Source: Bdellovibrionales bacterium
Lineage (GTDB): Bacteria; Bdellovibrionota; Bdellovibrionia; Bdellovibrionales; UBA1609
NCBI GenBank assembly: GCA_965219095.1
Contig: OZ244719.1
Span: 288,001 to 352,000, forward strand
Direction: 5' to 3'
DNA length: 64,000 bases
Position numbers and translations under genes: made by a program. Within the stretch, counting starts at the first letter, position 1. Each line of letters starts with the position of its first letter. Under the pieces are notes generated by a model. That model did no database searches. It saw nothing but the letters and a program-made list of their open reading frames with translations, and had not been told where the DNA came from. Below, piece by piece: positions 15,641 through 22,940 of the stretch.

Positions 15641-16005
15641 TAAGCTCTGAAGCTTCAGAAAGTCTTAAAGAAGCTCATTTAGAAACATTGACAGTCCTTC
15701 ATTTAAAAGCTCCTCCTTTTTTACGAAAGACTTTAAGCTCTACGAACCCAATAGAAAGTGCCTTCTCTATCGTTCGTCAACAAACAGGAAGGGTGAAGAA
15801 TTGGAAGAAAAATCCTCGACAAATCTCCTTATGGGTCGCAGCTTCCTTGTTACATGTCGAGAAAAAGTTTTGCACTATCAGGGGACATAAACAAATACTT
15901 CTATTTATGGAAGAAATAAATAAAATAAACCTTGAAAAACAAATGGAGATAGCTTAATTATGAAAAAGTCCCTTCTGAAAGTCTAACGGAATTACGGACA
16001 TCCTC
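15641..16005 (+). mobile_element. IS256-family 3' remnant
   Basis: LRKTLSSTNPIES..VRQQTGRVKNW motif; end ..GGACATCCTC; a second degenerate end at 16301-16327. Confidence 0.75.
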
Positions 16006-16112
16006 TCAAAAGAAGTTTTTTTAAAATCTCCTAACCGAAGCTTTTCCTTAAGTTAATTCTAAAATTTTAAATTTGAACATAAAAATGTCAAATTAATTTC
16101 TGTAATTGGTAT
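16006..16112 (+). mobile_element. IS630-A right-end fragment
   Basis: Matches 18168-18275 (reverse), 49494-49598 and 62080-62187; ends AATTAATTTCTGTAATTGGTA. Confidence 0.8.
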
Positions 16113-16446
16113 AAGTAGCAAAAAGCAAGAGATTCTTTGTCAAACCCTTAAGAAGAAGTTTTTATCCTAAAGACAAACCATTTTACTTTAACATTAAGAA
16201 AGCTTTTAGGACACAGTACTCTCAAAAGAGAAGTTAGAAAACTTAGAAAAAATGGTTGCAAAACAAAGAAAGGCCGCTTAAACATGAAATCGCCCTCTAA
16301 AATTCCACCGAGAAATGGGACATCCTCTCTATTCCCTCTAGGAGAAAAAACTGGAAACCTAAACGGAAGCATTATATACGTACTTACTACACTTCAAAAA
16401 CCCCCTTTTTATCTTGCTAGAAAAAGGGACTTTTGAAACACGGTTA

Positions 16447-17317
16447 GGGCGTGTCCTCATTTGACTGGACCTTTACTTTGAAGTTTAAGCCAAATAAACA
16501 TACATGCTATAGATAGCATAGCTTTGAAATTTCTAGCAAGCTTTTCAAATCGAGTGGCAATACCTCTAAAATGCTTAAGACGAGCAAAAAGGTTTTCTAT
16601 CTGATGTCGAGATTTATAGATATGACGATCAAAATCTTTATTTTTCTTTTTGCTATTTTTTCGTCTCGGTATCACAGGCTTTATCTTCTTACTACGAGCC
16701 TTATCTCGTATCTCATCCGAGTCATAGGCCTTGTCAGCAATCAAATACTCACTATGAAACTCATCAATTAAATCACCTGCAACTTGACTGTCGTGCACTT
16801 CACTCTCAGTGATTTTAAAACAGAGCGGATTTCCATGTGCATCAGAGGCCATGTGTATTTTTGTTGTGGATCCACCTCTAGATTTTCCCACAGCACGACT
16901 TTCTCCACGCCGAGCTCCACTAGCATGCTGATGAACCGATACGTAACTTCCGTCGATGGACACCCACTCTGTATCAACTTCTTCTTGTAAAGTAAAAAAA
17001 AATCATTCCATAACCCTTTTTGTGCCCACCTATTAAAGCGATTATATGCTCTCTTCCAAGGACAGAACTGTTCAGGAATATCACGCCACGGACTGCCTGT
17101 ACGTAATTTCCATAAAATTGCTTCCATAACATTTCTATTGTTTGCTGAATGATAACAGCCTTTCTCTCTTATAATAGCTTCCAGATCCTTCCACATAGAA
17201 TCTGTTAAAACTTTTCTTAACATAATACCTCCCTTTGTTATGAGCTTTTTACAATCTTTATAAATATTCAACACGCCTAAGGTCTTGAAAAAGGTCTGGG
17301 CAAATGAGGACACGCCC
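16447..17317 (-). mobile_element. IS5-family (IS427-like) element, two ORFs joined by a -1 frameshift at a T-run
   Basis: IR GGGCGTGTCCTCATTTG, TA flanks; RTGSPWRDIP, IDGS, ADKAYDSD, YKSRHQIENLF. Confidence 0.92.
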
Positions 17318-17640
17318 TAGTATAATTTGCTTTGCCTTATAAAAAATCCACTATTGTATCAAAACAAAGCTGAGAATAGTCTGTGAGGTTGTCAAAATGA
17401 AAAAGAGTCTAAACCCTCATACTGGACCACAGAGGAAGGAATACAGACCTCTTTTGTGCTTTTTTTATACTTTGAGGAAGAGGATTAAAAAAAATTCAAT
17501 TTTTTTGTAAATTTTCTAGAGTAAAAAACTTTTTTACAGGCTCTTTTATAGGCCTTTTAAGACATGGAATGTCATAAGATTTTTTGATAATGAATGTCAA
17601 TTGTGCTATAAAGTTCTCATCATAAGTAAAGGAGTTGTTT

Positions 17641-18144
17641 ATGTCTTTTAAAGTTGTTACAACTTTCAAAAAAGGGGATCATGTTGTTTATCCAGGACAT
17701 GGAGTGGGTAAAATTGTTGGTATTGAAGAAAAAAAAGTCATGGATACTACTCTTGTGTTTTATATGATCAGTATTCTAGATACAGGAATGAAAATTATGG
17801 TCCCTCAAGATAAGGCTGATTCTGTGGGGTTAAGACATCTCATTTCCAAATCGGATGCAAACAAAGTGATGGACATTCTTCGTCAAAAGAATGTAATAGT
17901 AGATCAGCAAACTTGGAATCGTCGTTATAGGGAGTATATGGAAAAGGTGAAAACAGGCTCTATTTATGAAATTGCAGAAGTTTTAAGGGATCTGATGTTA
18001 TTGAAAGTGGATAAAGAGTTGAGTTTTGGAGAACGTAAAATGCTCAGTATGGTAAGAAACCTTTTAATGGATGAATTAACCCTTGTCACAAGCAAAGAAG
18101 AACTGAAACAGCAGAAAGAAATTAAAAGCATGTTAGGGCTTTAA
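17641..18144 (+). CDS. carD: CarD/CdnL-family transcription regulator
   Basis: FKKGDHVVYPGHGVGKI, WNRRYREYMEK, LSFGERKML. Confidence 0.93.
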   Translation: MSFKVVTTFKKGDHVVYPGHGVGKIVGIEEKKVMDTTLVFYMISILDTGMKIMVPQDKADSVGLRHLISKSDANKVMDILRQKNVIVDQQTWNRRYREYMEKVKTGSIYEIAEVLRDLMLLKVDKELSFGERKMLSMVRNLLMDELTLVTSKEELKQQKEIKSMLGL

Positions 18145-19747
18145 ATTTCTTCTATTTTATAATATTATGCCAATTACAGAAATTAATTCGACATTTTTAT
18201 GTTCAAATTTAAAATTTTAAAATTGACTTAAGGAAAAGCTTCAGTTAGGAGATTTTAAAAAAACTTTTTTTGAGGGGAGGTTGAGTTTTCATAAGATATG
18301 TTTATTTCAGGTATATCTATTTGTTGTGTGAATCGATTGATGGGTTAAAATAAGTGAAAAAGTGAGGGTAAAATTTAAAATGACAAAAATCAGTTACACA
18401 ATTTAATTTATAGGTTCAAATTAATTTACAAGCTTGATTCATCTTGTTGTTTTCCCCAAGATTAATCCTGCCCTCCTGATCGCAAAAAGTATTCCAGGCC
18501 TCACAACAAGTATTCACTATATGGTCATAGTTTTTAAAACATGCATTCGATAATTTGATCCTTCGTAATTGTTGCCAGACTTGTTCCATGGGATTTAATT
18601 CTGGACTATAAGGAGGTAAAGGCATCAGGGATAAATTCTTAGGAACTATCAAAGTCTCTGTGGTATGCCAACTGGCTCTGTCCATTAAAACAATTCCATG
18701 ATAGTTTTCTTGAATATTTTTAGATATCTCATCTAAGTGAATTTGCATCATCCCTGAATTACATTCCGGTAAAATCCAAGCACAGCCTTTATCTTTATCC
18801 GGACAAACTGCTCCAAAAATATAAGTGGATAAAAATTGTCTTTGCCTCACAACTCTAGGCCGTGTGCCTTTTCTTGCCCAAATCCTGCTCAAAGAACCTT
18901 GCTGAGCTTATTCTGCATTCATCCTGCCACCAAATCTCTATTTTATGAGTCTGAATCTTTTCTTTTATTTTCTCCACCTCTTCTGGAAAATGTTCCTTAA
19001 ACTGTTCCATAGCTTCTTAATGAACTTTTAGGATGAAGAGAACGACCACTGATCCATACAATATTAAGGCGGTCTAAAGAAACATAAACCCTAGAAAGAG
19101 AATAGCAACTATCACAATTCATCTGCTAAAAGTTCCTGTATTCCCTTTGCTCCTATGCTTCCTCCTTCTCTTTTGTCTTGAATTTCATCTAACTTGATTT
19201 TAAAGTTCTCCTCTTCTGTTTCTGTCACTGGCAAACGAGGCTTGCGTCCTCTGCCTTCTCGATCTATCAATCCCTCGTAATCAAAGTCTACAAAAAAAGA
19301 CTGTAACCAGGATTTGATACTGTGACGATGATACAAAACCATACCTAGCTGTTTCTTGAATCGATTTTCCTTCTTAAATATGGTGCAAAACCAATAGTTT
19401 TGCCTTGATGTTGGCACTTCTTTCCACTTTGTTAAATAGCTAGAAAATCATACCCTTAAATCTGTGTAACTAAATCTTTTTTCGACGGTAAATCAAAAAG
19501 ACAGGTCACTGGTTTAAGCCATGATAGTGACCCTAAAGTACTTGCAGAAGGAGGTGATTTTTGAGACAAATTCTAAACCCTTTAGCTGGCCTGGTTTTTA
19601 AGGCCTCAAAGGGTGTTTTCCCTTTTTTTCGATTAAGCCTGTATTTTTGTGAAGGCTTACTCGAAAAAAAGGAAAAAGCAAAAAAAAGATGTAAAATAGG
19701 ATTTCAAGACTTTATTTATAAATAAACCAACAAAGGAGGAAAATAAA

Positions 19748-20751
19748 ATGTATGATCACTATATAGCCGTAGATTGGGCACAAAGTAACATGGCCATTAA
19801 GGATGACAGGCAAATCAAAAGATATTAAGACTATGGACACGATTTCAGATCTTGGGAATCTTCGTGCCTATTTAAAAACCCTGAAAGGTAAGAAGATATT
19901 GACTATCGAAGAGACTACAACTTCGACAGTGGTTGTATTCAGAATTAAAGGATAGTGTTGATGAGCTCATAGTCTGTGATCCTCTTCGGAACAGACTTTT
20001 AAGTGAAGGGGCTAAAACTGATAAAATTGATGCTGAAAAACTTGTTTTATTGTTACGCTCTGGCCTTTTGAAACCAGTCTTTCACTCAGGTGATGAATTC
20101 ATTTACCTTCGTAAGATTGTCAGTGGGTATGAAGATGTAGTTAAAAGAGGAGTTCGTGTTAAAAACCAAAGATCAGCTCTGTTTCGAGCTTCCCATCTTG
20201 ATGCTAAGAAGCAGACTCAATTAAAACGGGCAGAAGAGATATATTTGTTCTAGAAGGCTTAGATAAAGCTATCAGTGCTTATGGGGAGGAGAAAGCACGT
20301 TATGAAGCAGAGTTTAAGAGGCTAAGTAAAAAACACAAAGATATTAGAAATCTTAGTAGCATTCCAGGAATTGGTTCTATCAAGGCTATCAAGATTGTAG
20401 CCAGGGTTGTAGTGCCTCACCGATTTAAACGTAATTCCTGGTGGAGTGGACTGCGGACTTGTAAAGCTACATAAAATGAGTGGTGGAAGGTCTTATGGAA
20501 CTAAGAAGTCTAGGTTTTGCCCACAAATGAAAAGTGTTTTTAAGATAGCTGCACTCTCAGTTATAGGAAATAACAATAAATTTAATGATTTTTATGAAGA
20601 ATTGATCAAAAAAAATTTACCACCACACACTGCTAGAAACGTTACCAACTAGAAGAATTGCAGCTTTAACTTTAGGTGTTTTCAAGTCTGAAAAAAATAT
20701 AAACCTTATGGAGAACGTAAAAATGTAAATAATAATAAAACAACCTTATAA
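19748..20751 (+). pseudogene. IS110 DEDD recombinase, frameshifted
   Basis: MYDHYIAVDW, KTDKIDA, SIPGIG, CGL..KMSGG spread across several frames. Confidence 0.88.
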
Positions 20752-20832
20752 AATCATCTGTTTAAAGTTTCTTGCATAGTAAGTAACAATACAAATAATG
20801 ACTTTATGAGGTGAGGATAGATAGCTTAATTA

Positions 20833-22530
20833 CCTGAGTTCGTGCTCAAAAATGTACACTACAGACGGACGTTTTTTTGACAAGACTTTTTCCAATAGAT
20901 CTTAGTATTTTTTCTTGAACTTTATTCAAAGCTACTGTTTTGATAAGTCTAGTTTTATTTTTTCGGTCATAAAGATAGACATTATACATGCTACCGAGTT
21001 CTTCAAGAGCTTCCTCTGGAGACATCTGCATCTTTTCAAGCTTCATTTTTAGAATTGAAAGTATCAGACAAGATAAATAGCATATAAAGACATGTGATTG
21101 AACTCTGTTGTAAAGCCAATGACGAATTGGTCTCAAATTTGTTATTCCCTTTAAGGTCCTAAAAGATTTTTCAATTATCTCTTTCTTATAGTACAAATTA
21201 ACAATATCTTTTGCAGAGATCTTTTTTGTAGAAAATATACAAGAGTAACCATCAAACTCAGATTCTAAATTCAACCGATCTCTTCTTAATCTTCCTGTTG
21301 GAGTAAGGTATTTTTCCAAACCTGGTTTTATATTTTTATTTTTAGACAAAAGAATTTGTGCGTTTGCAATTTCGTCCAAACGAGATTCTCTTATATCTAA
21401 AGCTCTCCTTTGATTGTAACAAACAACTAAACGTCCTTTGATTTTTCCAACATTGTGATTAATGCTCTGAGCATACAAGGTACCACTTGATAACCTGATG
21501 CGATGGGATACATCAACAATAGAGTCTAGCCTTATCATTTTTCTAATCAAATCCTTCTCTTTTTTTCTGAGAGCAATCCCACAAAGCGTATTCCAGCCCA
21601 AATCATTGATTTCATTGAGGTTTCTCTCTGAAAAAATGCCTCTGTCGTAAACAAACATTCCTCCACTTAGTCCATAGTTTGCAAATCCATCGGATAAACT
21701 TAGTAGAGTCCTGCTATCGTGTATGTTTCCACTAAAAGTTTTATGAAACACTGGTATTCCTTCTTTTTGAGTTGTCACCAAACCAATTTGAATCAAAGGA
21801 TTTCCACGTTTCCCATCCTTACTCTTTCCTAATTTTCCAAGCTGACATTTGCTACCATAAAGGTATGTATTGGTAACATCGTACACCAACCCTTTTAGCT
21901 CAAGATTGTACCTTTTCTGAACACCTTGAAATATTTTCTTCTGTAAATTTTCTGGATCACTCTCTAAAGAATCTAGAGCAGAAAGCAAACGACTTTCGGT
22001 TAGATCCTCTAAATTTAGCAAAGTGTTTAAATCTGTTCTCTCATACCATTTTGGCATTTTTCTAAGGCTTTTGTAATCTAAACAGTGAGCATAGACCATG
22101 CTTAATATTTCATTGGAGTATTGGCCAAGAGATTTTTGCAAATCTATTTCCCTAGTATTTTATCTAAAACAAGCAAAGGACCATAAACCTTGACCTTTTC
22201 TATTTCAAGATCAGATGAACTCATTGAAATTACAGTTTCACCATTCTCTTCCTTCCCGATGTACCGAATATGCTTTTGGATAACTTTTCCATCAACCCTT
22301 TTGTTCTCTACTTCTGCAAGATATGTTACCTTTCCTCTTTTTATTCTTCTGATAAAGCTCATATTTCTCCCTCCTATAGTGTAATATATTACACTACAAA
22401 GGAAAATGCAAGGCAAGTTATTTTTTGTGATTTTATCTAAAAATCGAAAATTCCCCTATGAAAACTGAGATTTTTATGGAAAATGGGAAATTATAGCTTT
22501 GTAGTGTACATTTTTGGTCACGAATTTAGG
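20833..22530 (-). mobile_element. IS1634-family element, transposase split near 22143
   Basis: ~30-bp imperfect IR CCT(G/A)A(G/A)TTCGTG..AAAAATGTACACTACA; TSD TTAATTA (20826-32, 22531-37); YDVTNTY, YDRG, IEKSFR. Confidence 0.92.
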
Positions 22531-22740
22531 TTAATTAGAGTGATATTTATAAAAAATTCATTTCGACGAATAGCACATCCTCTATTCCTGAAATTTACTA
22601 TAATCTAAGGTTTTAAATCTTCGGAATAAATTCATGATTTAAAACTAAAAAAGGTTTAGATAGACGCATGATAGGAATATGTTTTTTTTACAATGTGTAA
22701 AGGAAGAGTCATTAAAAAATGGAAAGGAAATGCAGGAAGT
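22531..22740 (+). ncRNA. Putative IS110 bridge/seek RNA, 3' part (5' part ~20765-20832, split by IS1634)
   Basis: Nested stems enclose target matches TTAGAGTG and TTTCGAC, and donor matches ATTTAC and GATAGAC. Confidence 0.75.
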
Positions 22741-22940
22741 TTTTTCTTAGGTGATTAGAATATTCGTGACCGTATGCAAAAAAAATTTTTTATATTTTTT
22801 GTAAATGGAGAAGTGTTTTTTCTTGACATACTTTTTGATAGACACTCTAAAAATTTATAACAGAGTTTGATCAAAAAGCCAGGACACAATGTGTTAAAAG
22901 AATGTCGAATTAATTTTTGGAAATGGTATTATAAAATCCT

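Follow-up and report, generated by a model that had tools for sequence, protein, structure and literature searches.

Bridge RNAs are best described for IS621, whose RNA holds two internal loops, each with a long and then a short guide (PMC11208160, PMC11208158, PMC13626964). In that system a 2-nt core is used, the DNA is cut beside the core, and handshake bases pair with the non-cognate DNA. Positions 1-9, the core among them, are read by the long guide; cleavage first occurs between positions 9 and 10; and the short guide keeps positions 10-14 and takes up the incoming core, two handshake bases pairing with positions 6-7 of the other DNA (PMC11208158). Action in trans was raised as a possibility for IS621 (PMC13626964). 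The IS1111-group elements ISEc11, ISKpn4 and ISPa11 carry a seekRNA in a downstream non-coding end, and their sub-terminal repeats lie 7+3, occasionally 6+3, nucleotides from the ends (PMC11187229). A DEDD protein of 330-350 aa, a top-strand match placed 5' of the bottom-strand match, a junction promoter and natural re-aiming among relatives were also described for them (PMC11187229). PMC11187229 left open whether these elements, with their reversed guide order, work unlike IS621.

We analysed a window (the whole stretch of 64,000 nucleotides) that contains an element sharing these features of the IS1111 group, the junction promoter being putative here, and sharing with IS621 the two loops, the guide order within each, the 2-nt core with a predicted cut beside it, and the handshake bases. 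We consider it quite probable that this is a dead IS1111-type copy whose bridge RNA reads both the target and the joined element ends with the geometry of IS621 flipped, and that it was re-aimed and moved in trans. The features of the locus are collected in Table 1.

Table 1. Features of the element and its neighbours in the window; the roles given to RNA segments are predicted.
Feature	Positions	Strand	Basis
Whole IS1111-type element	19486..22842	+	junction survey and empty sites
Left sub-terminal inverted repeat, 9 bp, 6 nt inside left end	19492..19500	+	
Right sub-terminal inverted repeat, 3 nt inside right end	22831..22839	+	
Donor core dinucleotide CG (circle junction +1,+2)	19486..19487	+	homologue comparison
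-35 hexamer TTGACA	22823..22828	+	
Frameshifted IS110-family recombinase gene	19748..20751	+	PF01548; pieces align to intact P0001
Bridge RNA 5' part: outer stem halves 20771-77 and 20796-803, target-loop stem 5' strand 20813-18	20771..20832	+	
Nested IS1634	20833..22530	-	NF033559 above cut-off
IS1634 transposase, two ORFs	22144-22416, 20846-22141	-	
IS1634 7-bp duplication	20826-32 and 22531-37		
First target guide of allele B, 8 nt, complement of +1..+8 on the target top strand; resembles long IS621 LTG	22535..22542	+	
Second target guide, 5 nt, same sense as target -5..-1; resembles short IS621 RTG	22562..22566	+	
Core-pairing CG and target-loop handshake dinucleotide (AA here)	22567..22570	+	
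First donor guide, 9-nt window, complementary with wobble to left end of element	22592..22600	+	
Second donor guide 22660-64 (same sense as last 5 nt of element), CG 22665-66, donor-loop handshake CA 22667-68	22660..22668	+	
3' strands: donor-loop stem 22673-79, outer stems 22707-14 and 22730-36	22673..22736	+	
Host IS630-family element, main part (limits approximate)	18165..19485	-	NF033545 above cut-off
Remainder of host IS630 end: right target flank and terminal repeat	22843..22931	-	consensus extent of class B sites

A survey of junctions and empty sites placed both element junctions between A and C, and 36 clean left ends and 34 clean right ends of the element were found in the genome. 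Once the nested IS1634 and one duplication are discounted, the element measures about 1652 bp; in an uninterrupted copy the span from GAC to GAC is 1651 nt. The sub-terminal inverted repeats announced in the preliminary description of this DNA were found; they are shorter (9 bp) than the 11-13 bp usual for the IS1111 group in the available literature. Among homologues, when these two offsets only were tried, the ends followed 7+3 in 47 and 6+3 in 3 of 50 target-loop programmes. If the element were circular, the -35 hexamer of its right end would stand 17 nt from a -10-like hexamer at 19489-94, and the pair may constitute a promoter formed at the junction of the circle. No circle-junction joint was present among those listed from short-read contigs, which drop rare forms; one short-read joint skips the whole element and may be a paralogous empty site.

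The element had been attributed to an IS110-family DEDD recombinase, and this attribution holds: a piece of the window gene matches PF01548, the D, E, D, D and SG residues are legible in its pieces, and intact homologues, 61-83% identical over the PF01548 piece, carry both Pfam domains. These homologues, mostly 329-345 aa long, have D12, E58/E59, D95, D98 and S247 invariant. Of the IS1111-group motif GL-P----S(t)G, residues G239, L240, S247 and G248 are invariant with the right spacing, but in contrast to the described members the proline position is not a proline. The NCBIfam profile NF033542 was matched over its whole length (E 4.5e-33) with 114.8 and 100.6 bits, below the cut-off of 140, and the protein is thus distant from that of IS621, which is nevertheless the best solved-structure match (E 8.8e-11). 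Identity to annotated plasmid relatives, named only 'IS110 family', is about 25%, and a motif search of supplementary file 3 of PMC11208160 gave no close ISfinder-named row among the matches listed. The nearest full loci come from Bdellovibrionales assemblies (L101, 84%). These comparisons indicate that the recombinase clade is divergent within the IS110 family.

Relative to the intact protein P0001, the window gene is broken at about six places. Three of the breaks are common to 17 of 18, 12 of 15 and 14 of 14 covering copies, and a fourth is present in nearly all. Long-read error was considered as the origin of the frameshifts and rejected, since short-read contigs (four runs, one study) cover the gene without gaps at the common breaks. 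We did not find an intact recombinase in the genome, which is 94% complete: the longest stop-free frame is 116 aa across 13 long copies, the longest high-identity single-frame match is 144 aa, and a search with PF02371 matched two unrelated fragments only. The window copy had been called inactivated, and its gene is indeed frameshifted; however, the nested IS1634 is not what killed the element, because the frameshifts sit at sites common to most copies. Between 19930 and 20660, one common frameshift creates a match to the short target guide, and one frameshift site has three different one-base-longer versions among copies.

The IS1634 insertion splits the target loop of the window RNA. A 7-bp duplication flanks 13 of the 14 full-length IS1634 copies of the genome, and removal of IS1634 with one duplication, proposed earlier as the way to restore the loop, gives a loop that is present uninterrupted at C2:1349900 and C2:1976237. 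All ten motifs located in the preliminary description are in place, the outer stem halves standing at 20771 and 22730. When a natural uninterrupted copy of 264 nt was folded, the four named stems all formed (-49.3 kcal/mol, z -2.64, 2 of 200 shuffles as good). A 313-nt fold with a z of -0.30, in which the 5' stems were missing, was mis-bounded and is replaced by the former. Compensatory changes were observed in 19 of 26 consensus pairs (38 aligned RNAs; the two outer stems lie outside the span of the RNA alignment, A2, and the genome's own row is shortened and misaligned at its 3' end). A two-loop RNA downstream of the gene had been claimed, and in addition to the fold, the scaffold was found downstream of the gene in 109 of 160 homologous loci. 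The RNA matched no Rfam family at gathering score. We conclude that it is a real bridge/seek RNA and belongs to an IS1111-type element; systems of this kind are known.

We then compared guides and insertion sites. From the 160 homologous loci fetched, 75 rows were retained, representing 50 distinct target-loop programmes; the other 85 had no readable gene (10), were too short (4), mismatched the scaffold (37), had no callable ends (20) or little flank (14). Element ends were called from inverted repeats and end motifs, independently of the target guides. Since the search patterns demanded CG behind the short guides and at the left end, as well as TAG to mark the right end, those identities are built in. 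Chance matching was estimated by permutation over the 50 programmes, whose homologues are related and not independent.

The short target guide agrees with the left flank at 3.98 of 5 positions (1.57 after permutation), with an identity per position of 0.60-0.96 over -5..-1 and of 0.16 at -6. For the long target guide, agreement with the right flank is 6.92 of 8 versus 3.52 permuted, the best of four registers being taken for both, and 5.28 of 6 versus 2.69 without its first two bases. None of 5000 permutations reached the observed identity in any measure. In the donor loop, the last base of the short guide tracks the right end in 48 of 50 programmes; the long guide is nearly constant and covaries weakly, with U opposite A or G in 46 of 50. 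In the window copy itself, the first target guide matches class B sites at 8/8 and the second matches both class A and class B sites (see below) at 5/5. The four guide segments and their order had been predicted from the window, and constant guides facing differing targets would have spoken against them; we observed that the target guides vary with their sites. The covariation argues that the target guides do track insertion sites and are naturally re-aimed, and we infer from it that this RNA-guided recombinase is programmable.

The recombination site had been taken to be a fixed 3-nt GAC core common to target and donor. GAC does occur at both junctions of the window copy (19484-86 and 22841-43) and of most class A and B insertions, but the left junctions of site classes C and D are AAC while their right junctions are GAC, and in the 50 programmes target and donor have -1 in common in 5, -2 in 8, and both in none. 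The comparison of programmes refutes a general GAC core and the AAC junctions contradict a 3-nt requirement particular to this lineage; we regard this core as practically untenable. Target and donor share +1 in 46 and +2 in 37 programmes, which argues that the core is CG, immediately to the right of the A|C junction, and that G and A are flank bases read by the short guides; these two bases happen to be identical between this donor and site classes A and B. The target carries CG at +1,+2 in 33 programmes, CA in 10, TG in 3, CC in 2, AG in 1 and CT in 1, and its +2 is unlike that of the donor in 13 of 50. The core of IS621 is CT, and unlike there, the target and donor cores here often differ at one base (PMC11208158).

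Each short guide is followed by bases that belong to the partner. In 48 of 50 programmes the short target guide continues into 4 nt identical to donor +1..+4, and in none are these 4 nt identical to target +1..+4; the handshake is AT facing AT in 34 and GT facing GT in 14, a switch that may reflect few events among related homologues. Behind the short donor guide and its CG stand 2 nt that agree with target +3 in 30 of 50 programmes (null 14.7), with target +4 in 27 of 50 (null 13.4), and with donor +4 in none. In the lineage of the window, the AA handshake of the target loop mismatches donor +3,+4, where GT is expected.

When the bottom strand is read, guide order, guide lengths, core and both handshake dinucleotides appear to fit IS621 position for position, and the donor core CG would correspond to IS621 positions 9 and 8 on the opposite strand (geometry from PMC11208158). 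The 'reversed order' of IS1111-type elements may thus be the IS621 geometry on the other strand. We did not find this equivalence stated in the literature searched; Extended Data Fig. 10c and the supplement of PMC11208160 may show it. Compared with IS621 as described in the available text, the RNA lies here downstream instead of upstream of the gene, the guides are on the opposite strand relative to the gene, and long sub-terminal repeats are present. The element is, as far as covariation can tell, one that works like the IS621 bridge RNA with the end structure of the IS1111 group. As to the question left open in PMC11187229, the covariation indicates that IS1111-type elements have the four guides, the core and the handshakes in common with IS621 but use them on the opposite strand.

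In the mechanism that we favour, the target loop, judged by its sequence, reads the insertion site with an 8-nt guide to the top strand on the right of the junction and then with a 5-nt guide to the bottom strand on the left, the donor loop appears to read the joined element ends in the same way, and each short guide is followed by CG and two bases matching the partner DNA, not its own. The first cut would fall at the A|C junction on the bottom strand (as written), and that strand would be exchanged. Pairing of the CG core and the handshake bases with the incoming strand would follow, and the strand exchanged first would set the junction seen in the genome. As known for the family, the element would form a circle, gene and RNA would be transcribed from a promoter at the circle junction, and the chemistry would be performed by a DEDD/serine tetramer. 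The target loop would have been re-aimed several times in this genome, mostly at the two ends of one IS630, and a helper now missing from the assembly would have moved the frameshifted copies in trans.

Two other mechanisms have to be weighed against this one. The target loop alone could guide the element, the protein recognising the ends through the sub-terminal repeats and making a blunt, coreless joint by a chemistry unlike that of IS621. An 82-nt seekRNA sufficed for movement of ISEc11, without duplication, and its authors suggest different mechanics (PMC11187229); the ends here obey the same 7+3 or 6+3 rule, the long donor guide covaries weakly, and some targets depart from the donor core (the TG, AG, CT and CC cases above). 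However, a loop devoid of guides should not have a handshake that tracks the target, as the donor loop does in 30 and 27 of 50 programmes versus about 14 by chance; moreover, the second loop is conserved with covarying stems, and its short guide varies together with the final base of the right end. We judge that guidance by the target loop alone is quite improbable. It is less improbable, while still unlikely, that the same RNA-DNA pairing serves a single-strand copy-out/paste-in or a direct strand transfer, as proposed for CazIS110-1, with no full Holliday-junction exchange. A preference of more than 1,300-fold for one strand was reported in bioRxiv 10.1101/2025.10.25.684509, the junctions here nearly always follow the crossover of one strand, and the copy number rose to dozens. 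Dominance of one strand in the final junction is, however, also a trait of IS621, and sequence cannot tell the two routes apart; the guide assignments are the same either way.

Re-aiming of the target loop can be followed among the copies of this one genome. Four target-loop alleles were observed, A (7 copies), B (7), B2 (2) and C (2). Alleles A and B match site classes A and B, respectively, at 13/13 and each other's class at 10/13. Allele C matches class C ungapped at only 3/5 and 3/8, fitting with a bulge only, and matches class D partially (5/5, 5/8). Perfect genomic matches number 47 for allele A and 25 for allele B, the same as the numbers of empty sites, and the target rebuilt in the preliminary description is present as 25 empty sites. 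The two classes stand 1280-1320 nt apart in 51 cases and, judged by sequence, are the two ends of one IS630 element; in the window, an empty class A site is present at 18181, in the other end of the IS630 host.

No insertion occupies the site variants in which pairing of the long guide is broken: in one comparison junctions were 8 versus 0 and empty sites 47 versus 39 (Fisher p 0.019), and in a second 18 versus 0 and 25 versus 61 (p 9e-9), the occupied sites being partly non-independent (distinct outer flanks in 6 of 8 and 14 of 18). Judged by eye, only 6 of 13 readable copies carry an allele that fits the right flank of the copy itself, and one of these fits with a bulge only. The two flanks agree in four allele-mismatched copies, and among 9 paired elements there are 3 whose flanks belong to different classes. 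Since the fit between allele and own site is low and no intact gene was found, the frameshifted copies probably moved in trans, with later recombination between copies.

In 5 of 7 allele B loops an IS1634-type element is inserted, each time at the same position; the loops of the 11 copies with other alleles are free of such insertions. It is tempting to see a three-way contest of mobile elements fought through the guide RNA, with a re-aimed loop, an immune IS630, an IS1634 disabling allele B, and possibly guide rewriting, but we hold this scenario to be unlikely. If it were true, IS630 variants whose site is altered by one base or lengthened by three inserted bases would owe their spread to immunity, allele B2 would have removed the IS1634 insertion site yet kept 7 of 8 pairs, and self-reading loops, one of which matches its own flank, could show that guides are rewritten from bound junction DNA.

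Such loops were seen at C2:1617312(-) and C2:625735(-), where the long guide is complementary to the left end of the element itself and the short guide is left-flank-like. At C2:1617312(-) the loop is immediately preceded by the left end, folded into a perfect palindrome, and the short guide agrees with its own flank in 4/5 positions. Both could be self-targeting alleles or rearrangement products. A related second family (C1:10962(-)), with an RNA about 67-70% identical, has a long guide that matches the inverted left end of the first family at 8/8, and at C2:705050(-) precisely this kind of inverted left end is fused to a right end. A doubled GAC, empty or at a left junction, is rare (1 of 116 class A and 2 of 90 class B sites); these may be footprints.

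The class of system, natural re-aiming among relatives and the targeting of other mobile elements are already published. In PMC11187229, only target matches are assigned and re-aiming is described among relatives, whereas here the donor loop and two handshake dinucleotides are readable and re-aiming is observed among near-identical copies of one genome. IS4321/IS5075 (known to us from a reference title) and ISEc21 (PMC11187229) likewise insert at a fixed position in another transposable element; in contrast to them, the host is here an IS630, struck at both ends by two guide alleles. A literature search on IS110 elements targeting IS630 retrieved no paper in which all the search terms occurred together. 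The comparison would provide base-level design rules, namely a CG core, guides of 8-9 nt and 5 nt and two handshake pairs, for a clade that is widespread and includes many intact members. In addition, one genome with several guide alleles and both matched and unmatched site variants constitutes a natural test of the rules of targeting and re-aiming.

Other insertions were observed in and around the element. The right end is entered, immediately past the -35 hexamer, by another repeated element that has perfect terminal repeats, for example at C1:709976, C2:1616975 and C2:2092946 (window equivalent 22829-33); this element also inserts at similar sites elsewhere. At C2:990861 and in L103 (~2560), insertions lie at the 5' edge of the long target guide, and their starts resemble those of group II introns; in L102 the same target loop is interrupted further in. 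A tRNA gene lies near the homologous element of L155 (3227-3308). In the window, positions 15688-19417 form a dense cluster of broken transposases, including an IS5-like one (16457-17313) and that of IS630 (18416-19417), located between pheS and gltX-cysS-uvrB-uvrC-like genes, most of these names being assigned from translations.
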